A stretch of 24,607 bases of DNA from a bacterium (lineage in GTDB: Bacteria > Zhuqueibacterota > Zhuqueibacteria > Oceanimicrobiales > Oceanimicrobiaceae). A program made the translations under genes and the position numbers. Below, piece by piece: positions 1 through 19,373 of this stretch. The notes beneath the pieces were generated by a model. That model was not told the DNA's origin. It searched no databases and was given only the letters and a program-made list of their open reading frames with translations. The stretch's first letter is position 1; every line of letters starts with the position of its first letter. The stretch covers positions 1 through 24,607 of the forward strand of contig JBHHXN010000069.1 of NCBI GenBank assembly GCA_046757025.1, in the 5' to 3' direction.

Positions 1-439
1 AGGGGTCCACCGCGGTGGCGACGCTTTCGCGCACGTTCGTGCGGAAGTAGCGGCGATTTACATCGAGCTGCGCGAAGGTGTTGGACTCGTTTTGACTTGT
101 TTGAGAGAAGCGCTTTTCATTGTCTGACATCTTCACAGGATTTGGCAGCTCCGTACTAAACACCGACGTTTCTCGCATAAGTAAAAAGGGCATGGCAACT
201 GTCGCAAACAAGGCAAAAATGAAAAGCAAACGGTTGAACGCCTTCAGGGGTTCTTTGCGCCAGATTTGATAGTCTAACCAGGCGGGCTTCGAATATTTAA
301 AAAATCGAAATAGATTCAAAATAGTTTTCTGAGTAGGCTGGTTTGTGTTTATTTCCATGTGACCGTTATGCTTGCCATTCGAGCGATTATTAAGGATGAC
401 TGCTGGATTTAAAATCAATTTTTGTAAGCGATTATTCAT
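1..439 (-). CDS. Partial ORF, N-terminal 146 codons, continuing beyond the window edge. Probably a membrane-anchored protein occupying the PilP/GspC/secretin position of the operon.
   Basis: I translated the minus strand by hand from the ATG at 439-437. The frame is open through base 1 and gives MNNRLQKLILNPAVILNNRSNGKHNGHMEINTNQPTQ...RLLFIFALFATVAMPFLLMRETSVF.... It contains one hydrophobic stretch (LLFIFALFATVAMPFLL). The start lies 14 nt downstream of the pilO-like stop, which suggests coupling. The ORF is absent from the supplied track because it has no stop codon inside the window. Confidence 0.35.
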   Translation of the reverse strand, partial: MNNRLQKLILNPAVILNNRSNGKHNGHMEINTNQPTQKTILNLFRFFKYSKPAWLDYQIWRKEPLKAFNRLLFIFALFATVAMPFLLMRETSVFSTELPNPVKMSDNEKRFSQTSQNESNTFAQLDVNRRYFRTNVRESVATAVDP

Positions 440-453
440 TTGATTTTTATCTG

Positions 454-990
454 TTAAATGATTATTCGAACGATCACCATTTGACACAGTAGATTTTCAC
501 TATCTCGACCTTCAGGCGTTAAATAAATGTGTTGAATTCGTGTCAAGAGGTCCTTTTTTTCAAGCCTTTCGTAAAAGGTCATCAGGTCAGCAAATCGCCC
601 AGTACACTCGATTTTAACCTGCAATTTTCTCAGGTCGGTTGCACTGCCATTGAGGCTTCGGTGTGATTTTAACTCCAAAGAGGAGATGCGGGGTTGAAAT
701 CGAACCATTAGCACTTGGGTGCCGGCAGCCGTTTGAATGTCTTTGAATAAGTTGGCCAATTCGTCCTGACCGTTATTTTCATCAAATGTCTGAATAGGGA
801 TGATATCTGACCTTTGCACTAATTTTAGCGTACTGATATATTGCTTCTGCACCTGATTTAACCTGAGAGTGCTGTTCTGCCATTTTGTGAGTAGGGGAGA
901 AATTACGATGGCTCTTAATAAAAAAATCATAGCGAATGCAATTGTGATGGTCATTAATATTTTTTCTCGAGAAGCGAATTGTCTTTTCAT
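454..990 (-). CDS. PilO/GspM-like inner-membrane platform protein (type IV pilus or T2SS assembly)
   Basis: The 178-aa product has a short N-terminal cytoplasmic segment, one TM helix (ILMTITIAFAMIFLLRAIVI) and a predicted coiled-coil periplasmic region. This is the PilO/GspM architecture. It sits immediately after the PilM-PilN gene, where pilO follows pilN in the conserved order. Confidence 0.5.
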   Translation of the reverse strand: MKRQFASREKILMTITIAFAMIFLLRAIVISPLLTKWQNSTLRLNQVQKQYISTLKLVQRSDIIPIQTFDENNGQDELANLFKDIQTAAGTQVLMVRFQPRISSLELKSHRSLNGSATDLRKLQVKIECTGRFADLMTFYERLEKKDLLTRIQHIYLTPEGRDSENLLCQMVIVRIII

Positions 991-1047
991 GATTAATCCA
1001 TGTGTTGAGTTAGGTGAAATATTTGTTCAAACAAGTTAGATGATTTT

Positions 1048-2619
1048 TCATTTTAAGGTAATCTCCATCTCAAATTCGATCGCTACCCTCTGGTTTTGCA
1101 TTTTTCGACGATTGGCTGTTGTGATTGTCACTTGTTTGATGGTCGGTTGCTGTGATAAGCTCTGGGGTATTTCAAAGACTTCTTTGAGTGCATTAGCTGT
1201 TGCGCGTAGCAATATTTTCTCACCGCGCATAAAAGTTAAAGAACTGAGCTCCACCGACGCAGGCAGCTTTACCAGTACCTGGGCAATTTGAGCCGCAGTT
1301 AATGTAGATGGTCCCAACTGCTGTTGCAGCTCTTGTTGAATGATTTGCCATTTCTTGATTAAATTGACTTCAGGATTTAGCGCAGAGATGCTTTCCTGCA
1401 TTTGCTGAATTTCTGAATGACGATTGTTTAATTCGATGTTGACTGCGATGACAGTTAATATGGCTAGGTAAAATATCAACAGGACTGAGTAACAAGTCTG
1501 ACGAATAAAATGGCGCCACCGCTGACTTTGCTGCTGCTCTTCCGAACGTAAATCCATCAAATGGTTATGGCGGGCTTTGGCCATGCCAAAAAGGGTTGAA
1601 ATTGAAAACCAGTGACGCATTGAGGCGATGTTATCTGAATTATTTGAGGCGCCGCAAGGAATCATAAGGTCGAACCAGCTAACCGGCTTATTCAAATTAT
1701 CAGTAAGCTTTTCTACCAGAGCATTAATTCGTGGAAGCCAGCCTGTAAGTACCACGTGCTCCACGCACCCATGCGAAGAATTTGATTCGAACATGGAAAG
1801 CGTTCTCTGTAATCCGACTGTTAATTCATTAATCCAGGTTTCATATATTATCGTGTGGTGCATGCCTTCCAGGCTTTTCATTAAACCGGCCACACCTTTA
1901 CCGAAACTTCTGCAATACTGAAATTGACCCTGATCGATTATGATCACGTTGACGGTTGAAAAATCGATATCCACCAAAGCCAGACATTTGTCCTCATGCT
2001 CAGGAAATGCTTTCGAGGAGATGACAAAAGAGTGGTAAATGGCTTCGACATTCAAACGAATGGCATCGATAGTCAATCCGACTTTCCGGCAAATATTGCT
2101 GTAGCGATCGATCTCTGCTTTGCGAGCTATGACTGCCAGGACCTGGGTGTAACCATCCTCTTCTTTCGCAACGACTCGGAAATCATAGACAATTTCTGCC
2201 GGTGAAATGGGAATATTTTTTTGTAATTGAAAACCGACCATTTTACGCAGTTCATCCTTGTCATGGCCTGGTAACCGCAACATTTTCACATGAACGTTCT
2301 GACGTGGAATCGAAATCGCGGCTTTAGTTCCGGGTCGTAACCGTAATTCCTGGAGAATCTCGAAGAGCACTTTTCCAATCTCTTCGTCCTGCTCGGATGA
2401 AACGTACTTGACCTTCAAGAAATGTACATGCTCCTTTTTTCCGCGTCCATCCAGCACGATGAGTTTGATCAAGTTAACATCGAATTCCACCGCCACAAAC
2501 GTGCTCGATTGCGGCAATAATTCGTACACCCAATCCCTGAACCCGTTGAAACGGTCGTTAGATTGAATATCGAGCATTGAAGTTGTTGTTACAGTCTTGG
2601 TAAGCGTTTCCATTTGCAA
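1048..2619 (-). CDS. PilM-PilN fusion protein (GspL-like). An actin-like cytoplasmic domain is fused through a single TM helix to a PilN-like periplasmic domain.
   Basis: The first ~370 aa have a PilM/FtsA-like actin fold. They are followed by a hydrophobic helix (YSVLLIFYLAILTVIAVNI) and a ~130-aa C-terminal coiled-coil/periplasmic region. The position between gspK and the pilO-like gene matches gspL. The ORF track starts at a TTG at 2619, but the ATG at 2613 (METLTK...) is the more likely start. Confidence 0.55.
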   Translation of the reverse strand: MQMETLTKTVTTTSMLDIQSNDRFNGFRDWVYELLPQSSTFVAVEFDVNLIKLIVLDGRGKKEHVHFLKVKYVSSEQDEEIGKVLFEILQELRLRPGTKAAISIPRQNVHVKMLRLPGHDKDELRKMVGFQLQKNIPISPAEIVYDFRVVAKEEDGYTQVLAVIARKAEIDRYSNICRKVGLTIDAIRLNVEAIYHSFVISSKAFPEHEDKCLALVDIDFSTVNVIIIDQGQFQYCRSFGKGVAGLMKSLEGMHHTIIYETWINELTVGLQRTLSMFESNSSHGCVEHVVLTGWLPRINALVEKLTDNLNKPVSWFDLMIPCGASNNSDNIASMRHWFSISTLFGMAKARHNHLMDLRSEEQQQSQRWRHFIRQTCYSVLLIFYLAILTVIAVNIELNNRHSEIQQMQESISALNPEVNLIKKWQIIQQELQQQLGPSTLTAAQIAQVLVKLPASVELSSLTFMRGEKILLRATANALKEVFEIPQSLSQQPTIKQVTITTANRRKMQNQRVAIEFEMEITLK

Positions 2620-2656
2620 TAGCTCACTTTTCTAAAGCGATGAATTTTCTAAACGA

Positions 2657-3673
2657 TTATTCTGACCATGCCACTATTTCTAATTCTGTTGCGCTAATGC
2701 GATTAACTGTGGCTGCAATCAATTTTTGGGCCTGGCCATTCGAAGTTTTGCCGAGTGAGTAAACAGTGAAATGAGTTGATGTTACACCGATGAGCTGTTC
2801 AGATACCAGGCGGTTAATTTGCACCTGTTCCGCTGGCGTGAGTTTCAGGTGCTTCATCAATTTTTGTAGAATGTCCGTTTCCTTTTTGAAAATCACGTCA
2901 TCTTCCGTGAATGGTGTGAAATCAGACCCCCAGCGTAACTTGCAGATTTTTTTAGCCAGTTCTGATTTTAACCCTAATGTTTGTAAAATTTTTATTGAAG
3001 TCGTGTTGAGATTGACTCCGCCATCGCCGTAAACCGTGACGAGTCCGCTGAGTCGGTGAATATCTTCGTCCGTAAATCCTTTCACCATTTTCAGCTCTTG
3101 CAAAAAATCGATGTCTGCATTTTTACAAGTGTAACGGCGTCGGTGGTTCAGATAATAGTCACTTTCCGCGCCGCCGGGTTCTGGCTCATCATCCTCATCC
3201 CGCCAATCGAGCAGTGCGGCCAATTTGTCTGCGGACATGCCCGGCAGCCGTGCGAGTATCTCTTTCGATACCCGGTTGATATTGATTTTGCGATTCTCAT
3301 CGTAAATTCCGTACACTTGATGTGGGCCGTCTGAAAGCTCAACGGTCTCATAGGTGATTTCAAAATGTCCGCCGACAAACGATACTTTTTTGAACAGTTC
3401 TGGCCTATTCGCCCAGTTCTCATCAAAGGCGTCGTACGATTGCAGAGAATCTTTGATCGCATCTGCTTTCAGGACCGCGATGGCATGCTGGATACCCGCT
3501 CTGGCCAGCCAGGCAGCTTTTACTGCTTGCAGCCTATCGTTATCCCACCGCAGGCCATGCAAAGCATGGCGCATCATGCCTGCTGAAATCAGGCTTAGCA
3601 GCGCCATCATCCACAATGCCGTGATGGACAGGCTGCCTTTCTCGTTTAAATGTAATTTAATTTTCCGTTTCAT
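2657..3673 (-). CDS. gspK: Type II secretion minor pseudopilin GspK
   Basis: The ORF track extends to 3775. The plausible start is the internal ATG at 3673 (MKRKIKLHLNEKGSLSITALWMMALLSLISAG), which gives a prepilin-like hydrophobic N-terminus and ~339 aa, the usual GspK size. This start overlaps the gspJ stop (3657-3659) by 17 nt. The gene follows gspH-I-J in the canonical order. Confidence 0.55.
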   Translation of the reverse strand: MKRKIKLHLNEKGSLSITALWMMALLSLISAGMMRHALHGLRWDNDRLQAVKAAWLARAGIQHAIAVLKADAIKDSLQSYDAFDENWANRPELFKKVSFVGGHFEITYETVELSDGPHQVYGIYDENRKININRVSKEILARLPGMSADKLAALLDWRDEDDEPEPGGAESDYYLNHRRRYTCKNADIDFLQELKMVKGFTDEDIHRLSGLVTVYGDGGVNLNTTSIKILQTLGLKSELAKKICKLRWGSDFTPFTEDDVIFKKETDILQKLMKHLKLTPAEQVQINRLVSEQLIGVTSTHFTVYSLGKTSNGQAQKLIAATVNRISATELEIVAWSE

Positions 3674-4277
3674 TTGAATTGAATTTTCCACTCGTTCGAA
3701 TCGGGTAAATGATTTCTTCGATCTCTCCAGCAAAGGCGGTGGCCATTTCGATGCGCACGGCCAAGGGTAATTCATCCGATGCGGACCAGCTGTCAGTCCA
3801 GATCGCGGTTTGATTTTGCAAATAACTGAACCGTAGTGATTTTACATTTGATAGCAGTTGTTTAGTTTTTTGCTTACCGTCCAAATTAGTGCTTGTGCGC
3901 ATGAGATTTTTCGCAGAATAGTCCGGTGCAGTTTCAAAATAGTAGCTGATGAAACGGTACCGCACCTGCCCGTTTGCATTGCAATAAGAAGCCGTAAATC
4001 GAAGAGAATCTGAATGGCCTCGGAATGAGTTTAAACGAAATGCTCGAATACTCCTGAGATCTGATTTCAGCAGCAGCCATGCCGCTGAAGATTGTATCAA
4101 AACCTCACTTTTCTGCCTGACTGCGAAGCGGGCAGCAACTGCCTTTTGCATGATTGCGACCGTGGCCAACCCGACGATGGCGAAAATAGACATGGCAGTC
4201 AGCACTTCGATGAGGGTGAAACCGTGGTCATTCGTCAAATCCGTTAGTCTGAAATAGTTTTTGATGTTTTTTCTCAT
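3657..4277 (-). CDS. gspJ: Minor pseudopilin, GspJ-like (prepilin-type N-terminal cleavage/methylation domain)
   Basis: The sequence contains the class-III signal peptide motif ...NDHG|FTLIEVLTAMSIFAIVGLATVAIM. The product is 206 aa, and the gene lies between the gspI-like and gspK genes. Confidence 0.5.
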   Translation of the reverse strand: MRKNIKNYFRLTDLTNDHGFTLIEVLTAMSIFAIVGLATVAIMQKAVAARFAVRQKSEVLIQSSAAWLLLKSDLRSIRAFRLNSFRGHSDSLRFTASYCNANGQVRYRFISYYFETAPDYSAKNLMRTSTNLDGKQKTKQLLSNVKSLRFSYLQNQTAIWTDSWSASDELPLAVRIEMATAFAGEIEEIIYPIRTSGKFNSNETEN

Positions 4278-4286
4278 TTGTTTACT

Positions 4287-4733
4287 TTAGCGTTCTTTTG
4301 CGACCGAATTGGTTTGATCGGCAGACAACAAAGTGGCAAGTGTGAGTGAGCCGTGTTTACCCCGATCAGTCCAGTCCACGGTCACCGAGACTTTGTTTAA
4401 GCCGGGCACGGCTGACCACTCCGATGTCTGTACCTGGCAATTGAAAATTTTCTGGTCGAATTTGATGAGTTTGTTTTCTGACATTAAACTTGCCGATGGC
4501 TTTAATTCTATTTTTGATAACAAGTTCTCGGCTATCTCAAGGGCGGGTCGATAATAATGCTGACGAAATTGTAAAACGTGCACCGACTTCTGGCATACCT
4601 GAATGAGGGCAATCATACCGAAAGACAGAAGTGCCAGCGCCAGCAGCGCCTCAAACAGCACAAAGCCGTTTTCAGAGGTTTTGATCGTCTGTTGAGCGCA
4701 CATCAATTTGTTCATTTTTGAATCGTATTTCAT
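4287..4733 (-). CDS. gspI: Minor pseudopilin, GspI-like
   Basis: The prepilin motif ...SENG|FVLFEALLALALLSFGMIALI is present. The product is small (about 125-148 aa depending on the start). Alternative starts exist at 4715 and 4703. The gene overlaps the 3' end of gspH, which indicates translational coupling. Confidence 0.5.
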   Translation of the reverse strand: MKYDSKMNKLMCAQQTIKTSENGFVLFEALLALALLSFGMIALIQVCQKSVHVLQFRQHYYRPALEIAENLLSKIELKPSASLMSENKLIKFDQKIFNCQVQTSEWSAVPGLNKVSVTVDWTDRGKHGSLTLATLLSADQTNSVAKER

Positions 4734-5160
4734 ATTTTCTACCTTGTTTAGTCACCAGGCTAATTGAATCCAGTGGATACATGCCATCAACTGACCAGAA
4801 AAGCACGACATCGAACGGCCGCAGTTCGAGTCCATCGATCAGCCTTTGCTTTTTCATGACTTGCCATTGTTCATGAACCGGCTCAGCCAGTTTGGTTGAA
4901 GAAATCACTTTAGTTTGCCGTTCAATGGTAAAGCCGGTTCCGTCAGACCAAATTTTAAAACGACGTTGCTGTCCCGTGAATAGGGTTTGCTCATGAATCA
5001 TTTGTAATTCTTCGGCGATGCCTTCCGCTGTGTTTTTTAATTGCATTTCCTGGTAGGAATTTGATAATCGCGGACTCATGGCTGCAATCAACAAACCTAA
5101 AATGAGCAACGTCAGGCATAATTCGATGAGAGTCAGACCACGGTCATTGTCCAGAAGCAT
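4672..5160 (-). CDS. gspH: Minor pseudopilin, GspH-like
   Basis: The ORF track extends to 5256. The ATG at 5160-5158 has a GGGAGG Shine-Dalgarno sequence 9 nt upstream (minus strand, 5175-5170). It gives the leader MLLDNDRG|LTLIELCLTLLILGLLIAA, a typical 8-aa prepilin leader. This start overlaps the gspG stop by 17 nt. Confidence 0.55.
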   Translation of the reverse strand: MLLDNDRGLTLIELCLTLLILGLLIAAMSPRLSNSYQEMQLKNTAEGIAEELQMIHEQTLFTGQQRRFKIWSDGTGFTIERQTKVISSTKLAEPVHEQWQVMKKQRLIDGLELRPFDVVLFWSVDGMYPLDSISLVTKQGRKYEIRFKNEQIDVRSTDDQNL

Positions 5161-5599
5161 CGTCATGGGCCTCCCAATTTGTGACATCGTCGTCGCCGCC
5201 TTTTTGCAGGTCCGGACCGAAAGAAACCAAATCATAACTGTCCGGATTGTTTTCACCCGGGCAGGTGTAAATGTACTCTTGTTTCCAGGGATCTTTTAAA
5301 TTGGTATTTTTTTTCAGATAGGGTCCTTGCCAGGAAACCGGTAGAGGTGGTGTGTCTGGCTTTCTAAGTAGAGCCTCTAACCCCTGCTCGGTCGTCGGGT
5401 AGATACCGTTATCTAAAAAATACAACTCTAAAGCCATGGCCAGATTGGCATTGATGTCGGCATGTGCGGCTGCCCGCCTGGCCTGTTCAGTGCGCCCGGC
5501 AAATTGCGGCACCACCAGTGCCACCAGGATGCCCAGTATGATAACCACCATCATGACCTCGATAAGTGTGAGGCCGGCTTCATTTTGCAATTTTGTCAT
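5144..5599 (-). CDS. gspG: Major pseudopilin GspG (type II secretion system protein G)
   Basis: The leader is MTKLQNEAG|LTLIEVMMVVIILGILVALVVPQF. The C-terminal signature KDPWKQEYIYTCPGENNPDSYDLVSFGPDLQKGGDDD matches the GspG hallmark (DPWGNPY.Y..PG....YDL.S.G.DG..GG.). Confidence 0.8.
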   Translation of the reverse strand: MTKLQNEAGLTLIEVMMVVIILGILVALVVPQFAGRTEQARRAAAHADINANLAMALELYFLDNGIYPTTEQGLEALLRKPDTPPLPVSWQGPYLKKNTNLKDPWKQEYIYTCPGENNPDSYDLVSFGPDLQKGGDDDVTNWEAHDDASGQ

Positions 5600-5626
5600 G
5601 ACCCAGGTCCTTTCGTTTGCATGATC

Positions 5627-7117
5627 TTACCGCACCACGATCATTCTTTTAGTTTGCTCAAAATTTTTTGTTTTTAAGCAGTAGAGATAAATGCCCGACG
5701 GCACAGGCTGTCCCGCCTCGTTTAAGCCATCCCACTTTTGATAATAAATTCCAGCCTGTTGTTCACGGCTAATCAGGGACCGCACTTTTTGCCCCAGTAA
5801 GTTAAATATTTCTAATTTCGTTAAGGCTTCAAATGGCAGCTCATATCGAATAACACTGCCTTGATTGAAAGGATTTGGATAGTTTTGTGAAAGCGAATAT
5901 TTTGCCGGCAGTGTCAGCGCTTGCGCCGAGACATCTTGTTTGTTGAATTCATCGTTTTCCCGGGCTTGACTTTGTTGCGCTGAGTTTGGAAATTTAAATT
6001 CCACTTCGTCGGATGGGGGGCTTTCTTCAAATAGAGTCGGTCCATACGCGGTTATGGCAATATAATAGGTGCTTTGCACAGATAAGCTGATTTCTTTTTC
6101 AGTGACCAAACCGACATCGATATGATGAGTATAGTTACCACTGGATAAACCGTAATGAATTCGATAGCCGGCCAGGTCCGGCTCCGTGTTTGGATTCCAG
6201 CTCACTCGCACTGTTTTAAAATCATTTTTGATTTCATGAAAAATGACTTTCCGCACTTTTAAATTCAAATCCTGATTCTTTTTTGGATTGGAATAATCAT
6301 TGGTGAACACGAAATAAAGCAACGTATCCGATTTGTTCGGTGTCATCTGTGCGAGAGACAACACCTGCCATTTGAGCGACGTGACCTGTTTTTCTTCTAA
6401 AAGATTTCGAGGGCCGTTCACTGCCAAACCGATATTCGGCCAGCGGTTAGCTGCGGTATCGGCGCTCACTTCTGCTTCGATTAAAAAACTCGAATACGGT
6501 ACAGAAGATATCGGACAGGCGATCCAGGCATTCTTTTTTTTGCCCAGACCCCAGACCACCACGTGATCATTTTCCACACTCACATTTTTTGAGAATTGCA
6601 TTTGTGCAGCAGGAATCGTGAAATATTCCTGAACAATTTTTTTAAACCGGACCGTTCGAATTCTCAAGTTGAGATCCTGCTTTTTTTTGCGTTTGTAGAA
6701 GTCGTTTGTGAAAACAAAATAAATTGAAGAGTCATTTTTATCAGGCGTAAATTGCCCTAGTGTAAGCCAGTGCCAGTCTACAGACAATACGCGTTTTTCT
6801 ACCTGCAAATTGCTGGAATCGTTAAATGCCACGGCAATATTAGGCCAGCGATTGGCGGCGGTGTCCGCGCTCACTTCCACTTCGACTGAAAAGTTCGAAA
6901 AGGGTAGGACCGCTAACGAAATAGCAATCCAGGCATACTTATTTCGTCCCATTCCCCAGATCACAACATGATCGCCTTCTGCAGTCACATTTCGAGAAAA
7001 TGTCATTTCGGATGCCGGCACAAGTAACTCCTGGTTGAGCGGTTGCCCCAGGCTAATTCTGCAAAGCGCAATCAGGATGACCAAAATTGAAATTTTCGTT
7101 AAAGTTGCTGCTAACAT
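5627..7117 (-). CDS. Secreted multidomain protein: signal peptide, two tandem copies of an unassigned ~133-aa domain, a fibronectin type III domain and a T9SS (Por) C-terminal sorting domain
   Basis: The N-terminal signal peptide is MLAATLTKISILVILIALCRISLG. The duplicated domain spans aa 33-165 and aa 168-300 and shares the motif EVSADTAANRWPNI. An FN3-like block follows (VRVSWNPNTEPDLAGYRIHYG...YYIAITAYG). The C-terminus, LSQNYPNPFNQGSVIRYELPFEALTKLEIFNLLGQKVRSLISREQQAGIYYQKWDGLNEAGQPVPSGIYLYCLKTKNFEQTKRMIVVR, fits the type-A T9SS CTD consensus (NYPNPFN..T.I.Y.L......L.IY...G..V..L......AG.......WDG.N..G..V.SG.Y.Y.L). Confidence 0.75.
   Translation of the reverse strand: MLAATLTKISILVILIALCRISLGQPLNQELLVPASEMTFSRNVTAEGDHVVIWGMGRNKYAWIAISLAVLPFSNFSVEVEVSADTAANRWPNIAVAFNDSSNLQVEKRVLSVDWHWLTLGQFTPDKNDSSIYFVFTNDFYKRKKKQDLNLRIRTVRFKKIVQEYFTIPAAQMQFSKNVSVENDHVVVWGLGKKKNAWIACPISSVPYSSFLIEAEVSADTAANRWPNIGLAVNGPRNLLEEKQVTSLKWQVLSLAQMTPNKSDTLLYFVFTNDYSNPKKNQDLNLKVRKVIFHEIKNDFKTVRVSWNPNTEPDLAGYRIHYGLSSGNYTHHIDVGLVTEKEISLSVQSTYYIAITAYGPTLFEESPPSDEVEFKFPNSAQQSQARENDEFNKQDVSAQALTLPAKYSLSQNYPNPFNQGSVIRYELPFEALTKLEIFNLLGQKVRSLISREQQAGIYYQKWDGLNEAGQPVPSGIYLYCLKTKNFEQTKRMIVVR
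6218..7021 (-). repeat. Intragenic tandem duplication (2 x ~400 bp) encoding the two paralogous domains of the T9SS-CTD protein
   Basis: Nucleotide-level similarity is visible. For example, 6436-6480 (gccagcggttagctgcggtatcggcgctcacttctgcttcgat) matches 6840-6884 (gccagcgattggcggcggtgtccgcgctcacttccacttcgac). The protein-level alignment of the two copies is about 45-50% identical. Confidence 0.7.
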
Positions 7118-7147
7118 ATTTTCACTTTTGATTTGATATGAATAAAA

Positions 7148-7924
7148 TCAAAATAAATTAACTGAACCGTTTAAGGTGTTTCCATAAATGAGCACCAATA
7201 GGGCTCCTGCACCCAGAAAAGGTCCAAATCGAATTTCCCGAGTGTGCCGGGATTCCGGCCGGATCCCCATTCGAACGCATCCAAACACTACGCCAGAAAA
7301 GGCCGCCACCATGATGGTCGTGAGTCCGAGCTGCCAACCCAGAAAGGTTCCGATCATGGCCGCAAATTTGATGTCGCCTCCGCCCATGACCTCCGGCTTT
7401 CGAAAAATAAATTCACCCAGCCGGCCACTGGCATAGAGAAATCCACCACAAAGCAACAGGCCCCAAATGGGGTCGGTCAGTTTAAGCGATGAAAGAATTC
7501 CCGCCAGTGCGACTCCGGCTGCTATACCAGTGAGGGTTATTTTATCTGGAATGATTTTATGTTCTAAATCCATATACACCCCGACAACCAGCAGCCCTGC
7601 GAATAGCCAATTCGACAAAAGGATTTTAACATCGGAGAACTGGCTAAAAAGGAGTATGAATACCAGGCCGGTGATGGTTTCCAGGATGGGATATTTTACT
7701 GAAATAGTTTTGTGACAGCAGCGACTTTTACCGTGCAATAATAAGTATCCGAACAAGGGTAATTTTTGCAGCCAGCTCAAATGAGTGCCACAATGGTCGC
7801 AATAGGAGCGACCCAGCACCACGGACTCACCGCGCGGTATTCGAAATGAACACAGCCCGGCAAAACTGCCAACGGCTATACCGATTAAAAAAGTGATTAC
7901 AAATGGAAATATTTTAAAGATCAT
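7148..7924 (-). CDS. gspO: Prepilin peptidase (A24 family, PilD/GspO)
   Basis: The product is a 258-aa polytopic membrane protein with the tetra-Cys motif CDHCGTHLSW...CCHKTIS and Asp-containing loops typical of type IV prepilin peptidases. Its start overlaps the gspF stop by 1 nt. Confidence 0.8.
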   Translation of the reverse strand: MIFKIFPFVITFLIGIAVGSFAGLCSFRIPRGESVVLGRSYCDHCGTHLSWLQKLPLFGYLLLHGKSRCCHKTISVKYPILETITGLVFILLFSQFSDVKILLSNWLFAGLLVVGVYMDLEHKIIPDKITLTGIAAGVALAGILSSLKLTDPIWGLLLCGGFLYASGRLGEFIFRKPEVMGGGDIKFAAMIGTFLGWQLGLTTIMVAAFSGVVFGCVRMGIRPESRHTREIRFGPFLGAGALLVLIYGNTLNGSVNLF

Positions 7925-9141
7925 TATTGCACCACGAAGTCAATTTGAAAAATGGGCATCATCATGGCAAAGACGATAAAGCCAATGACGGCACCTATCA
8001 AAATAATCATGGCGGGCTCAAGGAGCCGCGTGAATAAGGATACCCGGCGTTCCACCTCTTGCTCATTGGATTTAGCTATTCGGTTCAGCACCTTTTCCAG
8101 TTGATTCGTGTCTTCTGCGATAGATATCATTTGCCCCAGGAGAGCGGGTAAATGATCGCCGGCTGCTAGATTGTCTCCCATACGCCCGCCACTTCGGATT
8201 GCTTCTGCCGTTTTACTGAATTCCTGTTGCAGAATTAAATTTTTGCAAGCTGCCACCACGACCTCAAATGCCTGATGAATGGGTACTCCATGAGCGAGCA
8301 GTGCGCTCATGGTACGAGCAAATTGCGTAATCTCTGCCTGGATTATCAGGGAGCCAAAAAACGGCAAACGCAGCTTTAGTTTGTCCAACCTAAGTTTGAA
8401 TTCGTTCTGTGTGTATTTAATTTTAATCATGGTGGCCAGAATCAAACCTGCCAGTAACATCAACGGCCATTGATTTGAAACACTGTTTGAAACCGACAAC
8501 AATATTTTGGTGGGCAGCGGTAGTGTCTGGCCGATTTCATGAAACATGGTCACGATTTGCGGTACCACAAATGTCAGCAGAATGGTGACAGTCAGAATCC
8601 CCATACTCAGCATCAACAGAGGATAAGCCAGAGCGGCGCGAATCTGCTTTTGTACGGAGTCTTCCTTTTCCAGGTAATTGGCCAGATGTTCGAGAACCAA
8701 TTCCAACATCCCGCCGGCTTCCCCGGCTTTGATCATGTTCACGTAAAATTTTGAAAACATACCAGTCCAGGCAGCGCATGCTTCAGAAAAACGGCTGCCG
8801 TCCTGCAGGCGTTCTAAAAGATCGGGTAAAACCCTCGCAAACGATCCTTTCGAAGCTTGCTTTTGCAACAGGAATAAAGCGGAATGCACCGTCATCCCCG
8901 CTTCCAGCATGTTCGCCAATTGTCTGGTAAAAAGTATTACCTCTGATTTATTTTTTCGTGAAATGAGATTCAGAAGGAAACCGGATTTGTGCTCTCTCTG
9001 GCTTTTGAGCGGTACAATCTCCACCGGGAACAGCCCTTTTTCAGCGAGCTGCGCAGCCAGCAAATTGGCGCTTTCTGCTTGCATGGCACCCTGAACCATT
9101 TTTTCAGGGGTCGATCTGGCTAAATATTCAAACATTGGCAT
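7924..9141 (-). CDS. gspF: Type II secretion / type IV pilus inner-membrane platform protein GspF/PilC
   Basis: The 405-aa product has two T2SSF-type repeats and three TM segments. The N-terminal region (...AAQLAEKGLFPVEI...) is typical GspF. It lies 3 nt downstream of gspE. Confidence 0.8.
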   Translation of the reverse strand: MPMFEYLARSTPEKMVQGAMQAESANLLAAQLAEKGLFPVEIVPLKSQREHKSGFLLNLISRKNKSEVILFTRQLANMLEAGMTVHSALFLLQKQASKGSFARVLPDLLERLQDGSRFSEACAAWTGMFSKFYVNMIKAGEAGGMLELVLEHLANYLEKEDSVQKQIRAALAYPLLMLSMGILTVTILLTFVVPQIVTMFHEIGQTLPLPTKILLSVSNSVSNQWPLMLLAGLILATMIKIKYTQNEFKLRLDKLKLRLPFFGSLIIQAEITQFARTMSALLAHGVPIHQAFEVVVAACKNLILQQEFSKTAEAIRSGGRMGDNLAAGDHLPALLGQMISIAEDTNQLEKVLNRIAKSNEQEVERRVSLFTRLLEPAMIILIGAVIGFIVFAMMMPIFQIDFVVQ

Positions 9142-9144
9142 GGA

Positions 9145-10764
9145 TTATTTCTCAACCTCCTGTGTAACACGCAAAACTTCATCTAACGTGGTAATCCCAC
9201 GACTAATCTTTTCGATGCCGTCGTTGCGCAGACTTACCATGCCTTTTTCGATGGCTAATTTACGTAGCTGATTGGCTGGCGTTTTCATCACGATTTGTTC
9301 TCGAATTTCATCGTCGATTTTCATAAATTCGTAGATGGCGGTACGCCCAAAATAGCCGCTCTGTTTGCACATTTCACATCCCCTCCCTCGATATAATGTA
9401 TGATTTCCGCCCCCGAGTTTTCGAAATAACGTTTGCCGACCATTGCGGACATTTTCGCTTTTTTTGCAGTCCGTACAAATTACGCGAACTAATCTTTGCG
9501 CCACGATACATTCAACTGAAGCGGCAATTAAATAAGGCTCGATTCCCATGTTGATGAGTCGGGCCACGGCACTGGCCGCATCGTTGGTGTGAAGAGTGCT
9601 GAATACCAGATGGCCGGTCATGGCCACCTGAATAGTCACCTCGGCAGTTTCATTGTCGCGAATTTCGCCCACGAGCATGACATCGGGATCGTGGCGCAGC
9701 ATGGACCGCAGGCCCTGCGCAAACGTGAGGCCAATTTTAGGGTTCACCTGCACCTGCGAAATGCCGGTCAATTGATACTCGATGGGATCCTCCACCGTGA
9801 TGATTTTTCGCGCACTATCATTGATTTTGTTTAAACAAGAATACAGGGTGGTAGTTTTGCCGCTACCAGTCGGCCCGGTCACCAGGATGATTCCGTGTGG
9901 TTTTTCCAATAACTGTTCGATCAAAATTAAATCCCGCCGCATCAAACCCAGGCTTTCGAGATTTAGGGCTACGTGATTGCTGTTTAAAATTCGGATATTT
10001 ACCGACTCCCCAAAAGGTGTGGGTAAAATTGAAATCCGCAGATCCAATTCCTGCTGGCCTGTGCGCACTTTTATGCGTCCATCCTGAGGAAGCCGCTGTT
10101 CCGCAATGTTTAAATTGGCCATAATTTTGATGCGGGAAACAATGGCAGGATGCAGATGTTGTAGGGATTCCGGTACAGAAACCTCGTAGAGCACCCCATC
10201 AACCCGATAACGGATGCGTAAACGCGATTCATAAGGTTCGATATGGATGTCTGTGGCCCGCTCCTGAAAGGATTCGATGAGCAATTCGTTCACAAAAGCC
10301 ACGATGCTGGCTTCTTCGGATTGCTGTTCAAGGTCGGTTGCATAATCGGCAGTCAGATCAATGTAATGGCTGGCATCGGTTTCATTCAGCATTCGATGGA
10401 CGGTTTCGGCTCCTAAACCGTAGATATGCCGCAATGCCTCTTCAATCTGTTCGGCGTTGGCCTTTAATGGTTCGATCTCCTTTTTTAGAAGCCATTTGAG
10501 TTCATCAAGGGTGGCTAAATCATCAGGTTCCATGGTGGCTATTTGTAACCGATCTCTATCTTCACCCAAAGGAATAATTTTATACTGACAGGCCACCGGT
10601 GCGTCGATGAGATGGTGCAGCGATTTGGATGCCGGAGATTTTAACAGTTGCGACAGTAATACAGCGGCATTTTTATATTTGGATTTCTTATTTTCTGCCA
10701 GCGGCAACGGTTGCTTTACAAGTGTCTTTTTCTTGAGATTTTGGGATTCAGGTAACCAGCTCAA
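9145..10764 (-). CDS. gspE: Type II secretion ATPase GspE (PilB/GspE family)
   Basis: Walker A is GPTGSGKTTTLY. The C-terminal tetra-Cys zinc motif is CTDCKK...CEMCKQSGYFGRT, and the N1 domain motif is present. There is no in-frame ATG near the N-terminus. The ORF track uses the TTG at 10770. The second TTG at 10764-10762 lies 7 nt downstream of a perfect AGGAGG (minus strand, 10777-10772) and is the more likely start. Confidence 0.85.
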   Translation of the reverse strand: MSWLPESQNLKKKTLVKQPLPLAENKKSKYKNAAVLLSQLLKSPASKSLHHLIDAPVACQYKIIPLGEDRDRLQIATMEPDDLATLDELKWLLKKEIEPLKANAEQIEEALRHIYGLGAETVHRMLNETDASHYIDLTADYATDLEQQSEEASIVAFVNELLIESFQERATDIHIEPYESRLRIRYRVDGVLYEVSVPESLQHLHPAIVSRIKIMANLNIAEQRLPQDGRIKVRTGQQELDLRISILPTPFGESVNIRILNSNHVALNLESLGLMRRDLILIEQLLEKPHGIILVTGPTGSGKTTTLYSCLNKINDSARKIITVEDPIEYQLTGISQVQVNPKIGLTFAQGLRSMLRHDPDVMLVGEIRDNETAEVTIQVAMTGHLVFSTLHTNDAASAVARLINMGIEPYLIAASVECIVAQRLVRVICTDCKKSENVRNGRQTLFRKLGGGNHTLYRGRGCEMCKQSGYFGRTAIYEFMKIDDEIREQIVMKTPANQLRKLAIEKGMVSLRNDGIEKISRGITTLDEVLRVTQEVEK

Positions 10765-10869
10765 TTTCAAGCCTCCTATTTTTCGGCTATTAAAAGGGTC
10801 CTTGATCCTGTTCTTGCAATCAATTAGAATTCAATCGAGATTTTAAGCGATGATTTGATTTCCCAGGAA

Positions 10870-10885
10870 GGCAAACGGTGTACCA
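10870..10885 (-). promoter_or_regulatory. Candidate sigma-54 (-24/-12) promoter upstream of gspE
   Basis: The minus strand reads TGGTACACCGTTTGCC. Against the consensus TGGCACG-N4-TTGCW it has GG and GC at the exact 10-nt spacing. The predicted transcription start is about 90 nt upstream of the gspE start. A sigma-54-dependent activator is encoded 2.6 kb away. Confidence 0.35.
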
Positions 10886-11011: not shown

Positions 11012-11380
11012 CTATTTTCGGGAAAGAGCTTTGCGGATGACTTTGCGGATTTTTTTGATGGAGACGGGTTTGGTGAGATATTCAAAAGCACCTTGTTTTA
11101 GGACTTCCTCTGCTGAATGTTGCGTCCCCTGACCGGTGATGACGATGATAGGAATCATTTCATTTTTTTTCTTAATTTCCTTTAAAGCTTCAAATCCATC
11201 GATAATTGGAATAGCCAGATCTAGAAGCACAACCTGCGGTTGCTCGGTCTCGAATTTCTTCAGGGCCTCGGCGCCGTCTCTGGCTTCGATACTTTCATAT
11301 CCTTCTTTTTCCAATAATTCGTTGAAAGCGAATAGAATCCGCTCGTCATCATCAACAACAAGAATTTTAGGTTTGCTCAT
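11012..11380 (-). CDS. Stand-alone response-regulator receiver domain (CheY-like, no output domain)
   Basis: The 122-aa product has the acidic pocket VVDDDE, the phospho-acceptor Asp in VVLLDLAIP, T in IIVITGQG and K in LTKP. An AGGA ribosome-binding site lies 8 nt upstream. The protein is about 55% identical to the receiver domain of the sigma-54 activator at 13465. Confidence 0.8.
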   Translation of the reverse strand: MSKPKILVVDDDERILFAFNELLEKEGYESIEARDGAEALKKFETEQPQVVLLDLAIPIIDGFEALKEIKKKNEMIPIIVITGQGTQHSAEEVLKQGAFEYLTKPVSIKKIRKVIRKALSRK

Positions 11381-12509
11381 GAGGATTGTCCTGGGTAGTT
11401 AATGTCAAGGAGACGCGACCAAGTTGTTGATTCAGTTCTGTATGAGGAGCCGCATTTTACCTGCCTGATTGATACCTTGCTAATAAAATTGATTAAATGA
11501 AAGACTATGTTTATGCCATCGTTTCAGATACACGCACTAGAGCCGATATTCAGCTTTATTATAAACCTATATAAACAGGTTCCGCGCATGGGTGTATTTA
11601 GGCACTAAAGAGTAAGACAATGTCAACAGGTGGTACTGCTGTTTGCGCTAATTTTAACAGTGGCAAATGTCATACCTGCTTTGGTGCAAATAAACGATTT
11701 TTTATTTTATTTATTTTTATAATTCCAAATTAAAACATCAGAATGTACAATAGTCCGATTATATTCTACCAACACGGATCCCCTTTCTGAAATCGTCAAT
11801 AAAGACGATTAATTGGAGAATTCTGCGTTAATAAAAAAGAATTGAGTCGTTTCTGTATTCGCTGAAAATAATTGACAAAATGATGATTACAATGTAAAAA
11901 TGTCCTCATGAGAAAAATCCATCGTTAGGGTGTTTTAATGGTCGCAAAATCAACTTCATACGTTGGTGCATAATAAATCTGAAGAAGCGTTGGGGTCCGA
12001 ATTAAGACAGTCTTGAAATAATTGATAATAAGAGTCTTATGTCTGAATAGCATGAAGGCCGCCTTGATTTTCAGGCCGGAATTTGAACAGTTTTACCAAT
12101 TATTTCCGTATGCCAAGTTGAAATGAATTATTTTTAAGTTATTAATTAATAAAAATTAATGTTGTTACCATTTAGTCAATTATTTTGTTGGCACGCTCTT
12201 TGAATTAATAATAATTGTAGCAGAAGAATGAGGATGGAGCAATCATTTGCTTCCGGTATGAGGTTGTGTAAACGGTGGGATTGAGCCAGTCCGAGTGGAG
12301 ATGCAACGAATTCAAGTTCTTTTCTTGTTCCCATCCCTGACAAAATATTAATCCTATTAAAGTTCATATAGCTGGCATTTCGCTGAAGATTGAAGTGAAA
12401 CAACGCAATGTTTTTGTTTATTGCATGCAAATTCTAATCATGCGGCCACTGGATTTTATGTGGAACGCTTAGTTCCATAAATTACTGGGCAAATCAAAGG
12501 GAGGTGAAC

Positions 12510-13460
12510 ATGTCGATACGCAGTGACCAAGTACAAAATAGATGGCAGATGCATGCCTTTCAGCCCCCTAATCAAGCGTTGAAATCGTTGATTGAAAAGG
12601 CAGAAAAAATCGGGGATGGCCTGAACTCAGCCTCAAAGACGCCTTTTGAACGAATTCGTGATCAAGCGGATGCGGAGATGACTGTGGGTCAGATGTCCGC
12701 GATGATTTCTCATGAGTTTCGGAATGCGCTGACTTCCATCAAAATGATTCTCGAGCTTCAAATCGAATCCAGAAATTTAAATCCATCGGAAAAAAAGTCA
12801 CTAAGCGTGGCGCTTAAGTCCATTAACCACATGGTCGATGTTGTCACCCGGCTTCTCAATTTTTCAAGGCCAATGCCTCCTGATTTTCAATGTGAGGACC
12901 TCAATGAAGTGGTAACCGAGAGCCTTCAGTTTGTGAAGACGCAATTAAAAAAAGAAAGAATCACTATTCAACCGGCTTTTGATTCAAACATTCCTACTAT
13001 GTTACTCGATGCCCACCGCATCAAAGAAGCGCTGGTAAATCTCCTTTTAAACGCCATGCATGCTTTAGAAAAGAAAAAACCAGCGGGCGGCAACAGAATG
13101 ATTTCAGTGGCGACTAAAAGACACACCCTTCACCAGGCCCTTAGCGATCGTTCTTATTCGGGTTCGTGCAAAATTCCAAGAAGTGAGGATGGCAATTTTG
13201 ACCAACCCTTCCTGGAATTGGCTGAGGGTACCGAATGTGTTTTAATTGAAATAAAAGACAATGGTGAGGGCATCAATCCCGAGCATTTCCGGCACATATT
13301 TGATCCTTTTTATACCACGAAATCCAGAGGCACCGGACTGGGGCTTGCCATCGTGAAACAAACTATAAATGAGCACGGCGGAATGATTACCATAAACAGT
13401 TTGCTAGGACAGGGAACCACAATTAAATTATATTTACCTTTGCTAAATTGCAGGAGATGA
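12510..13460 (+). CDS. Cytoplasmic sensor histidine kinase (HisKA + HATPase_c, no TM helix and no recognisable sensor domain)
   Basis: The H-box is MISHEFRNALTSI, the N-box LLLNAMHAL, G1 IKDNGEGI and G2 GTGLGLAIV. The ATG at 12510 has a GGGAGG sequence 5 nt upstream. The GTG at 12504 used in the ORF track lies inside that ribosome-binding site. Confidence 0.8.
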   Translation: MSIRSDQVQNRWQMHAFQPPNQALKSLIEKAEKIGDGLNSASKTPFERIRDQADAEMTVGQMSAMISHEFRNALTSIKMILELQIESRNLNPSEKKSLSVALKSINHMVDVVTRLLNFSRPMPPDFQCEDLNEVVTESLQFVKTQLKKERITIQPAFDSNIPTMLLDAHRIKEALVNLLLNAMHALEKKKPAGGNRMISVATKRHTLHQALSDRSYSGSCKIPRSEDGNFDQPFLELAEGTECVLIEIKDNGEGINPEHFRHIFDPFYTTKSRGTGLGLAIVKQTINEHGGMITINSLLGQGTTIKLYLPLLNCRR

Positions 13461-13464
13461 CAAC

Positions 13465-14853
13465 ATGGGTCTCAAAAAAGTGATGTTTGTAGATGATGAC
13501 GATGAAATCCTATTTGCTTTCCGTGAGGTGGTTAAGAAAGAAGGTTATTTACCGGTTGAAGCCCGGGATGGGCAACAAGCATTGGAACAATTCGACCTTG
13601 AAAAACCAGAAGTGATCTTCATGGATGTCTCCATGCCTAACCTGGACGGACTGGAAGCTCTCAAACAGTTTAAAAAGAAAAACCGCTTTATTCCGGTGAT
13701 TATGATTACCGGCAAAGGAAATATGAAAACGGCCATCAATGCCATGAAATTGGGGGCATTCGATTATCTCACCAAACCGTTATCCGTGAAAAAAGTGCGT
13801 CAATCGATTGCTCAGGCCCTGTCCAGCTCAAAAAAATCTTCAGCAAAACCAATACACTTCGACGCAGAGACCATGGATCGTCACGAGCTCATCGGAGTCA
13901 GCGATGTGATGCAGAATGTCTACAAACTAATTGGTTCGATTTCAGTGACACCGAACCACACTTCTGTTTTGATCACCGGTGAAAGCGGCACCGGCAAGGA
14001 ATTGGTCGCTCGTGCCATTCATAAAAACGGCCCTCATGCGGAAGAGCCCTATATGGCGGTTAATTGTACAACCTTACCGGAGAATCTGCTGGAATCCGAA
14101 CTTTTTGGCCATGAGAAAGGCGCTTTTACAGGCGCGGCTCAGAGAAAATTAGGTAAATTTGAAGTGGCTGGATGTGGAACGATTTTTCTGGATGAAATTG
14201 GCGATCTGTCAACCGCACTGCAACAAAAATTGTTACGCGTGCTACAGGAACGTCAGTTTGAGAGATTAGGAGGACACGATCAAATCGAAGTCCAGGCGCG
14301 CTTTGTCGCTGCCACCAATCAAAACATCGCTGAGAGTACCATAAACGGCCGTTTTCGCGAAGACTTATTTTATCGTTTGAACGTAGCAACCATTCATTTG
14401 CCGCCTTTGAGAGAACGCAAGGAAGACATCGTTTTGCTCGCCTACTATTTTCTGACAAAATATAACCATCAATTTAATAAAGCCATAAACGGTTTTTCAA
14501 AACAGGCCCTGTCGCTTTTGCAAGCTTATTCCTATCATGGCAATGTTCGCGAACTGGAAAACCTCATCGAACGTGCGGTGATGTTGACCCAGGGCAAGGT
14601 AATCCTTCCTGAAATATTCAGTGAAATGTTTACACCACCGGCTCCGGAAGCGACTCTCCTTCCCATAATCAGCTCGGTATTTAAAGAATCCCGTGAACAC
14701 CTTTTGAATCAGTTCGAGAAGCAGTTTGTAACCGAGCAGCTCACCAAAAATTGTGGGAATGTCAGTGCGGCCGCAAGAATGAGCCAAATGTCCCGCCAAA
14801 ACTTTCATCGACTGCTATCCAAGCACCAAATCCAACCGGAGCGCCTGATCTGA
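13465..14853 (+). CDS. Sigma-54-dependent response regulator (NtrC/PilR family: REC, AAA+ and HTH domains)
   Basis: Receiver domain is VDDDDE...FMDVSMP...LTKP. The AAA+ domain has Walker A GESGTGKE and the GAFTGA sigma-54 contact motif (EKGAFTGAAQ). The C-terminus carries a Fis-type HTH. The start lies 4 nt after the histidine kinase stop. Confidence 0.85.
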   Translation: MGLKKVMFVDDDDEILFAFREVVKKEGYLPVEARDGQQALEQFDLEKPEVIFMDVSMPNLDGLEALKQFKKKNRFIPVIMITGKGNMKTAINAMKLGAFDYLTKPLSVKKVRQSIAQALSSSKKSSAKPIHFDAETMDRHELIGVSDVMQNVYKLIGSISVTPNHTSVLITGESGTGKELVARAIHKNGPHAEEPYMAVNCTTLPENLLESELFGHEKGAFTGAAQRKLGKFEVAGCGTIFLDEIGDLSTALQQKLLRVLQERQFERLGGHDQIEVQARFVAATNQNIAESTINGRFREDLFYRLNVATIHLPPLRERKEDIVLLAYYFLTKYNHQFNKAINGFSKQALSLLQAYSYHGNVRELENLIERAVMLTQGKVILPEIFSEMFTPPAPEATLLPIISSVFKESREHLLNQFEKQFVTEQLTKNCGNVSAAARMSQMSRQNFHRLLSKHQIQPERLI

Positions 14854-18882: not shown

Positions 18883-18928
18883 TTGAATCCATGTAATTTA
18901 AATCAATTAAAGATTGAGAGAACCCCTT

Positions 18929-19270
18929 ATGAAACTCATTATTGCAACCATTCAACCGCATCAACTACCGGCTGTAAAAAAGTCGCTATTTGATGCCCAG
19001 GTCTACAAAATAACCGTCTCCAATGCGCTGGGATGCGGCGAAGAAAAAGGATATCATGAAACTTTTCGAGGGGTAGAGCACGAAGTGAGCTTGCTCAAGA
19101 AAGTGCGTTTGGAGATTGCGGTTAACGAGGATTTTGTGGAGCCCACCATCGCGGCGATCATCAAAGGCGCGCGCACTAACCAGGTTGGGGACGGCAAAAT
19201 TTTCGTGTTGGACTTGCAGGAGTGCATTCGAATTCGTACAGGCGAGCGTGGCGGGCAGGCCATTGGTTGA
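18929..19270 (+). CDS. glnK: P-II family nitrogen regulatory protein (amt-linked, GlnK-type position) with a non-canonical T-loop
   Basis: The 113-aa product aligns to GlnB/GlnK without gaps. Conserved motifs include GDGKIFV, IRIRTGE and K58. The ATG at 18929 has a GAGAG sequence upstream. The ORF track instead uses a TTG at 18914. Confidence 0.75.
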
Positions 19271-19373
19271 AAGGAAATGCAGCAGGAAGCAAGGGTGCGC
19301 CAATCAGGAATTGAATTGTCTTGTTTTAAAATATAATCAACAGAAGTTTTTTTCAATAAATGAGTGTCTTAAT

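Follow-up and report, generated by a model that had tools for sequence, protein, structure and literature searches.

Several described systems come close to the locus presented here. The xps genes of Xanthomonas, which encode a type II secretion system (T2SS), are documented in the order E F G H I J K L M N(C) D (PMC7777525), and the T2SS-beta of Escherichia coli is encoded along with pppA, its own peptidase gene, and sslE (yghJ), the gene of its substrate (PMC3707838). The GspL/PulL protein is itself regarded as PilM and PilN fused together (PMC10191384, PMC4471445), two proteins that are separate in the PilM-PilN(-PilO-PilP) set of the type IVa pilus (T4aP) of Pseudomonas aeruginosa, Myxococcus xanthus and Thermus thermophilus. 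Two further clusters invite comparison, the type IV pilus-like cluster Amuc_1098-1102 of Akkermansia and the putative T2SS of Cytophaga hutchinsonii and other Bacteroidetes (chu_3191-3201), which includes a peptidase gene and whose equivalents of L, M and C resemble PilM/N/O/P (PMC5553014). Here we analyse a cluster of gsp-type genes from an uncultured KSB1-like bacterium, a relative of candidate division KSB1, which, like Cytophaga, belongs to the Fibrobacteres-Chlorobi-Bacteroidetes (FCB) superphylum, where type IX secretion system (T9SS)-type cargo also exists. The cluster occupies the minus strand, from position 10770 down to 1, of contig JBHHXN010000069.1, an entire contig of 24,607 bp from a metagenome-assembled genome (MAG), hereafter the window. 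We found no literature on KSB1 bacteria with a T2SS or a T9SS. The cluster is most probably a T2SS operon of a non-proteobacterial kind, and we set out below the evidence for this reading and the alternatives to it.

A Probable Type II Secretion Operon

The twelve co-directional genes that a first-pass annotation had placed in this region are all present, and form one minus-strand cluster with the content gspE-F-O-X-G-H-I-J-K-L-M plus a cut open reading frame (ORF), gspC. The best family matches of the components are all to T2SS models, with GspE, GspF and GspK each scoring highest there. The GspE-family ATPase and the GspF platform protein are encoded by adjacent genes. The first, gspE (9145..10770), encodes the assembly ATPase, 541 amino acids (aa) long when read from TTG 10770, with a T2SSE domain (E=7e-135) and an MshEN N-terminal domain; it scores 615 bits against the NCBIfam GspE model TIGR02533 (cut-off 630) and 568 bits against PilB, and is 72-74% identical to the GspE of syntenic loci. 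The second, gspF (7924..9141), encodes a polytopic inner-membrane protein of 405 aa with two Pfam T2SSF domains (E=1.7e-57), which reaches 349 bits against TIGR02120 for GspF (cut-off 424) and at most 278 bits against PilC models. For both proteins the best match is a T2SS model, at a score below its equivalog threshold. The prepilin peptidase/N-methyltransferase gene gspO (7148..7924; 258 aa; A24_N_bact, E=2e-27; Peptidase_A24, E=1e-17) overlaps the gspF stop by 1 nucleotide (nt) at its start.

Downstream of the inserted gene X, the major pseudopilin is encoded by gspG (5144..5599; 151 aa; motif ...EAG↓LTLIE; T2SSG, E=1.4e-30), and its TIGR01710 score of 143.7 bits exceeds the equivalog cut-off of 88.85. 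Four minor pseudopilin genes follow, namely a gspH-like gene (4672..5160; 162 aa; ...DRG↓LTLIE; N_methyl; TIGR01708, 34 bits, sub-threshold), a gspI-like gene (4287..4733; 148 aa from the first ATG; ...ENG↓FVLFE; TIGR01707, 23.8 bits, sub-threshold), gspJ (3657..4277; 206 aa; ...DHG↓FTLIE; N_methyl; T2SSJ, 34.4 bits, cut-off 28; TIGR01711, 49.7 bits) and gspK, encoding the large minor pseudopilin (2657..3673; 338 aa; T2SSK_1st, 55 bits, cut-off 26; HHH_3; NF037980, 89 bits). GspH, I, J and K find their best NCBIfam matches in the models for these minor pseudopilins, all sub-threshold, and the Pfam families T2SSJ and T2SSK_1st are matched above their gathering scores. All five pseudopilins carry G↓(F/L/S)xxx(E) prepilin motifs, GspK without the Glu at +5 (KG↓SLSITAL). 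The gspL equivalent comes next and then a gspM/PilO-like gene (454..990), whose bitopic inner-membrane product of 178 aa, with a transmembrane (TM) segment at 9-37, has weak family matches (T2SSM, E=0.009; GspM_XpsM, E=0.007) and is 37-42% identical to its positional orthologues; for the GspI-like protein this identity is 42-51%. GspH, GspI and GspM are recognisable at sub-threshold scores only, yet they are conserved as positional orthologues. As judged from sequence, the family assignments of E, F, O, G, J and K are unambiguous, as is the PilM_2/PilN nature of L. The hallmarks of a T4aP cluster were also looked for: the window encodes no second, PilT-like ATPase, no PilA-type pilin and no PilP, the PilA model gives 27.7 bits on the major subunit (cut-off 400), the PilM and PilN parts form one protein, and all genes belong to a single operon.

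Gene content and order support the view of a single-operon gsp cluster, and the tight packing claimed for it is confirmed at seven of the eleven junctions, which measure 17 nt or less. The distances (in nt, negative for overlaps) are 3 for E-F, -1 for F-O, 30 for O-X, 27 for X-G, -17 for G-H, -62 for H-I, 9 for I-J, -17 for J-K, 43 for K-L, 57 for L-M and 14 for M-C. One overlap of the first-pass annotation, 4672/5160, was garbled, both numbers being ends of gspH; the true gspH/gspI overlap is 4672-4733, taking the first ATG of gspI. The gene boundaries are backed by alignment to relatives and by an identical, shorter public contig (L001; SRR29324597_30103), assembled independently for the same organism in Logan. 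The gspH gene call is taken from this contig, which, like the relatives, supports the gspK start at 3673. At the head of the operon, TTG 10770, which gives the longest gspE ORF, leaves only 1 nt to an AGGAGG (10777-10772); TTG 10764, with a 7-nt spacing to it, is the more likely start.

Gene Order among Relatives and in Other Phyla

The first-pass annotation had described the gene order as atypical, but its backbone is the documented Xps order (PMC7777525), and what does differ is the gspO insertion and X. The order is atypical relative to the Klebsiella/Vibrio C-D-E...O layout only. In KSB1-like loci the clade order reads E-F-O-G-H-I-J-K-L-M-C-D; as in Xps, all shared genes come in the same order within a single locus, the ATPase first and the secretin last, and GspG is canonical. 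The two types differ in that the Xps peptidase is encoded elsewhere (PilD), whereas gspO lies here between F and G, and in that Xps has a GspL of the Pfam T2SSL type, whereas L scores as PilM plus PilN. X is without counterpart in Xps, and the GspC (205-217 aa) and secretin (~550 aa) of the relatives are shorter than those of Xps.

The position of the peptidase gene next to gspF, which had been pointed out before, stands: gspO separates gspF from gspG in six related loci (L002, L004, L006, L010, L013 and L017) and this placement is conserved in all KSB1-like loci examined. The E-F-G-H-I-J-K-L-M backbone also occurs, without gspO, in Nitrospirota (L015), Eisenbacteria (L016, with the secretin two genes after M), Omnitrophota (L024) and Auribacterota (L025); the GspM equivalents of Nitrospirota and Auribacterota match PilO/T2SSM. 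The gspF-gspG junction appears to tolerate insertions, and recurrently so, because it holds gspO in the KSB1-like loci, gspO and X in the window and a Peptidase_MA_2 gene in Auribacterota (L025, 4780-5565). The operon is most probably a divergent but recognisable member of a widespread non-proteobacterial T2SS type with Xps-like order, truncated by the contig end.

Operons of the relatives are flanked by very large secreted-type proteins (L002, 1-1818 and 14582-15778; L004, 15638-21572) with HYDIN/ASH Ig-like repeats, a right-handed beta-helix/DUF1565 and, in one case, a 2,454-aa CBM96/PKD architecture. These are candidate substrates or surface proteins.

The Contig End and the Expected Secretin

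The operon had been called complete, with no secretin in its visible part. The latter observation extends to the whole 24.6-kb window, but the operon is not complete, the contig end cutting it inside gspC, 146 codons in. No secretin is seen because the contig ends there. The cut ORF (1..439, minus strand), which the first-pass annotation had singled out as the place to look for a secretin, PilP or GspC, encodes the N-terminal 146 codons of GspC with a TM segment at 65-90. It is 24-27% identical to the proteins of 205-217 aa encoded after gspM in relatives (L002, E=2.6e-11; L006, 1e-8; L004, 5e-4), and these match Pfam T2SSC (PF11356) and, weakly, GspC_delta and T2SS_C_SYNERG; the fragment of 146 codons itself has no Pfam match. 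The HR domain presumably lies in the C-terminal part of GspC, outside the window. GspC with an HR domain is mandatory in the final T2SS model of the type IV filament superfamily (PMC6668835).

A secretin of ~550 aa is encoded directly after gspC in each of the related loci that reach beyond it, eight distinct ones (L002, L004, L006/L007/L008 counted as one, L010, L011, L013, L017 and L022). These secretins match GspD best (TIGR02517, 281-305 bits, cut-off 351) and PilQ at 249-276 bits. By synteny with the relatives, gspD would be the gene next after gspC in this genome as well. In an alternative scenario the system would truly be without a secretin, either because it is degenerate or because the secretin is encoded elsewhere, and the absence would be biological and not an artefact of assembly. 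Such a scenario, which we consider highly improbable, could appeal to the 24.6-kb contig without a secretin, to the continuation of this MAG not having been retrieved and to published T2SS models in which gspD may be a "loner" (PMC6668835); moreover, the closest secretin matches examined belonged to other organisms. Yet gspC is cut after 146 codons by the contig end, beyond which nothing could show, and the secretin lies right after gspC in every one of the eight loci, including L011, the sole sharer of X. A degenerate system is also at odds with the upstream genes, all of which are intact ORFs with conserved motifs. A secretin following gspC beyond the contig end is the reading that we retain.

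Leftward extension by exact-protein look-up with GspM and GspG returned only shorter Logan contigs. Two homologues of the L002 secretin, P0285 and P0292, were considered as coming from this MAG's own secretin contig and rejected, both belonging to other organisms. The Logan contig L001 stops at window position 26, 25 nt short of the end of the MAG contig. The two assemblies break inside gspC no more than 26 nt apart, which may point to a repeat, to variation between strains or to a drop in coverage at this site.

A GspL Built of PilM- and PilN-Like Parts

The first-pass annotation had GspL replaced by a fusion of the PilM-PilN type. The fusion holds up in sequence, in fold and at the junction motif, yet its architecture is that of GspL, and to speak of a replacement goes too far. 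The gene (1048..2613, minus strand) encodes 521 aa with matches to PilM_2 (E=6e-19) and PilN (E=3e-3). The topology is GspL-like, bitopic with one TM segment (370-397), a cytoplasmic PilM-like domain of actin fold (~35-350) on one side and, beyond a coiled coil, a periplasmic PilN-like domain of ferredoxin-like fold (~450-520) on the other. At the junction, NLMDLR (350-356) corresponds to the PilN N-terminal motif; LMDLR (352-356) is invariant among the aligned L proteins, the preceding N is present in most members, and the consensus of the wider fusion family is INLxP. The AlphaFold (AF2) model of L has a predicted local distance difference test score (pLDDT) of 74. In Foldseek searches with it the best matches were PilM of P. 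aeruginosa, M. xanthus and T. thermophilus, with a target template-modelling score (TMt) of 0.69-0.72 over ~350 columns (0.72 for PilM 5eou), followed by FtsA and later by the GspL cytoplasmic domains 4pht, 1yf5 and 5tkw (TMt 0.52-0.66). By sequence, the matches of L in the PDB are PilM proteins only, and L has no match to Pfam T2SSL.

This form of GspL is not confined to the window. A profile search of the fusion family, covering 1.84 billion representatives, gave 7,919 matches, 176 of them below 1e-30, nearly all full-length proteins of 460-560 aa. PilM_2 and PilN were both found in 56 of 56 sampled members, and T2SSL too, weakly, in 11 of the 56. The genomic context was examined for four members (L015, L016, L024 and L025), all of which reside in gsp-type operons. 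Other phyla, too, commonly have a GspL that scores as PilM/PilN in their equivalent operons. Aligned with P. aeruginosa PilM, L has DID (residues 213-217) opposite the DIG triplet of that protein, and the consensus of the wider family has DID as well. We place this triplet in the phosphate-2 loop, in which case the nucleotide binding of L may be altered.

With the T4aP set, L shares a cytoplasmic domain that is PilM-like in sequence and fold, the PilN N-terminal motif and a C-terminus that matches Pfam PilN. In contrast to the separate PilM and PilN of the T4aP, the two parts are covalently fused in L, which is the GspL topology, and the fusion sits in a GspG-H-I-J-K/GspC context without PilT, PilA or PilP. 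The likeness to the Akkermansia cluster is partial: L reaches 70 bits against the PilM-like family of Amuc_1101 (cut-off 650), and the secretins of the relatives match Amuc_1098 weakly, far below the 750-bit cut-off, but the Amuc cluster is without the GspG-K/GspC set.

Secretion System or Pilus

A PilM-PilN-type platform protein would betray T4aP ancestry if the cluster encoded a T4aP-derived filament machine, be it a pilus or a secretion device of independent evolutionary origin, as with the "T2SS" of Bacteroidetes and Cytophaga. We think this quite unlikely, although several points weigh against a T2SS and most of them lend themselves to this explanation. L matches PilM/PilN and not T2SSL in Pfam, finds only PilM by sequence in the PDB, has a fold nearer to PilM than to the GspL cytoplasmic domain, and belongs to a family that NCBI annotates as "pilus assembly protein PilM". 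GspE, GspF, GspK, GspH and GspI, together with the secretins of the relatives, fall below the NCBIfam equivalog cut-offs, and PilB and PilQ models score only ~10% lower than the T2SS ones on GspE and those secretins. The "T2SS" of Cytophaga, another lineage of the host's superphylum, branches with T4aP in published trees (PMC6668835), and given this placement a T4aP-derived origin of the clade may have to be kept in view. In addition, the system is without a known substrate, the secretin and the C-terminal part of GspC are absent from the window, and a contig of the same MAG carrying them was not found.

The comparison with Cytophaga nevertheless sets the two systems apart in several ways. The Cytophaga major pilin is reported as very divergent, with few or unrecognisable minor pseudopilins (PMC6668835), whereas the major subunit here is canonical, passing the GspG equivalog threshold, and H, I, J and K are all recognisable. 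The gene order D-E-O-G-F of the Cytophaga cluster (PMC5553014) is unlike the Xps-like order found here. Against a T4aP derivative also stand the full H-I-J-K set including GspK, the GspC-family protein and the absence of PilT, PilA or a separate PilO/PilP, and the single-locus organisation is typical of T2SSs and not of T4aPs (PMC6668835). These features argue for the T2SS operon as the preferred reading, with a secretion activity that would follow from established T2SS biology.

Gene X, an Insertion with a T9SS Sorting Domain

Between gspO and gspG, the first-pass annotation had noticed an inserted, cargo-like gene. An extra gene for a secreted protein is indeed present (X, 5627..7117, minus strand; 496 aa; TIGR04183, CBM60, FlgD_ig, Por_Secre_tail), but it is not an obvious T2SS cargo, because its C-terminus is a T9SS type A sorting domain above threshold (TIGR04183, 44 bits, cut-off 23). 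The protein, a non-catalytic one, consists of a signal peptide (1-24), two jelly-roll repeats (33-165 and 168-300), an FN3-like domain (~301-375), a disordered linker (379-415) and a C-terminal domain (CTD; ~413-494). The repeats show weak, CBM60-like similarity and are 54% identical to each other (internal repeat, E=8e-55). In the AF2 model (pLDDT 78.5) the C-terminal domain is a beta-sandwich (421-494), and a Foldseek search of this model found no enzymatic domain, only low-TM, multi-domain matches of the CBM/Ig/FN3 type. The N-terminus is hydrophobic over 1-27 and reads ...SLG↓Q.

A T9SS cargo protein requires a Sec-type leader. The NCBI call of X on this contig (P0008; 464 aa, 100% identical) starts at V33 and omits the signal peptide (window 7022-7117), which the 496-aa ORF from ATG 7117 restores. 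In sequence, X thus combines the N-terminal Sec signal peptide and the type A C-terminal sorting domain of predicted T9SS cargo. The same CTD occurs on many proteins of KSB1, Zixibacteria and Calditrichota, suggesting that a T9SS pathway exists in these groups. X has orthologues in P0009 (54% identical) and P0010 (46%). In L011, whose contig begins at this point, the former is encoded directly upstream of gspG, and this is the only other lineage with X so placed; X is absent from L002, L004, L006, L010, L013 and L017. Shorter relatives in KSB1 genomes have one repeat and FN3, with a dockerin replacing the CTD. We interpret X as a lineage-specific insertion of a modular, putatively surface or glycan-binding protein, which from its gaps of 27-30 nt is likely to be co-transcribed with the operon, and which is probably a passenger that leaves the cell via the T9SS.

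Could X instead be a dedicated T2SS substrate or an accessory component encoded inside the operon? X is spaced 30 nt from gspO and 27 nt from gspG, and no terminator was called specifically at these junctions, which would suit such a role, and so would the L011 orthologue at the same place and the large Ig/CBM/beta-helix secreted proteins that adjoin the operon in relatives. T2SS loci can moreover encode a substrate, as does the E. coli T2SS-beta with SslE (PMC3707838). SslE, a lipoprotein, is a demonstrated T2SS substrate, whereas X carries the export signal of another system, above a curated threshold, and its route is a predicted one. The T2SS-beta cargo and peptidase genes, which are adjacent, precede gspC-M, whereas gspO and X lie here between F and G. 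X is also missing from six other loci of the clade, and the family of its N-terminal module occurs elsewhere in KSB1 with a dockerin, resembling a mobile module of surface proteins. A role of X as a T2SS substrate or component is, in our view, unlikely. A broader proposal, in which X would in this sub-lineage be integral to the operon and co-transcribed with it, as a T2SS substrate or a surface receptor coupling T2SS and T9SS, and the clade with the PilM-PilN-type GspL would be an extant intermediate linking T4aP and classical T2SS, we consider very unlikely. X as a passenger remains the interpretation adopted here.

Upstream Region and Candidate Regulators

Some 100 nt upstream of gspE lies a sigma-54-type -24/-12 element, TGGTACaccgtTTGC (10871..10885, minus strand), the single match of TGGYAC-N5-TTGC in the window (0.06 expected). 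It is a candidate promoter of the operon, which would place the operon under sigma-54 control. Divergently encoded, about 1.7 kb from gspE, are a histidine kinase (12504-13460, plus strand) and a sigma-54 enhancer-binding response regulator (13465-14853, plus strand). The element is absent upstream of gspE in five relatives (L002, L004, L006, L010 and L013). At 150-300 nt upstream of gspE, these share another, conserved motif, TTAAC-N5-6-TTAAT(C) followed after 12-14 nt by ATTAAT(C/A)-(C)TGCA (L002, ~2220-2260; L004, ~3265-3305; L006, ~2987-3030; also L010 and L013). It lies between gspE and an OmpR-type regulator/kinase pair that is encoded divergently, and the window does not have it. The difference suggests regulatory rewiring within the clade. 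A TTGACAA direct repeat upstream of the sigma-54 element, with 22 nt separating its two copies, was set aside as too short to tell from chance, and scans of the window for sigma-70 promoters and terminators, which gave counts not above shuffled expectation, were not used.

A stand-alone receiver-domain (REC; CheY-like) gene (11012..11380, minus strand; Response_reg, E=2e-30) lies 241 nt upstream of gspE in the same direction and is a possible regulator of the system, although its membership in the operon is uncertain. Among the fetched loci, its best match is the REC domain that the GspE of Auribacterota (L025, 1382-3514) carries as an N-terminal fusion. L011 has a REC-only gene (3678-4091) between gspI and gspJ, but the two receivers do not match each other, and we rejected the window gene as its orthologue. 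The recurrent association of REC with GspE suggests a possible post-translational control of the ATPase.

Remainder of the Window

The rest of the window encodes, besides the receiver, the histidine kinase and the sigma-54 activator, a YceI protein, Amt, P-II, GlnA, an SPFH protein and an AsnC-type regulator. Three of these genes, amt, P-II (18914-19270) and glnA, form in this order a nitrogen-assimilation cluster over 17563-20813. The longest glnA ORF, from 19116, overlaps P-II; a later start is probably the true one, because the Gln-synt_N domain begins at residue 109. Between the receiver and kinase genes, 11381-12503 is a 1.1-kb AT-rich region (~38% GC) with no convincing gene, and an Rfam scan of the whole window, this region included, gave no match.

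Proposed Working and Significance

The gene content and order, the homologies, the modelled fold of L and the synteny with C-D in relatives are observed here; the mechanism that we propose is taken from established T2SS biology. In GspG, H, I, J and K, GspO would cleave and N-methylate the G↓(F/L/S)xxxE leaders. Docking to GspF and, through the latter's PilM-like cytoplasmic domain, to GspL, a GspE hexamer would then power the assembly of a short pseudopilus of GspG with GspK-I-J(-H) as its cap. GspC would link the bitopic GspL-GspM platform to the GspD secretin, through which folded periplasmic proteins would be pushed out. X, as a passenger and putative glycan-binding surface protein, would exit via the T9SS.

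The significance of these results is mainly corrective. The seemingly missing secretin reflects the contig end, and the "atypical order" reflects the sole use of the Klebsiella/Vibrio order as reference. The insertion of X, which is lineage-specific, and the details of regulation are minor matters. The REC domains repeatedly associated with GspE hint at a mode of regulation. For the bacteria concerned, full G-H-I-J-K operons of the T2SS type occur in KSB1-like members of the FCB superphylum that also use T9SS-type sorting signals. For the family, GspL here and in many uncultured phyla still resembles PilM fused to PilN, and automatic annotation therefore calls it PilM, so that tools taking PilM as evidence of a type IV pilus may misclassify such loci.

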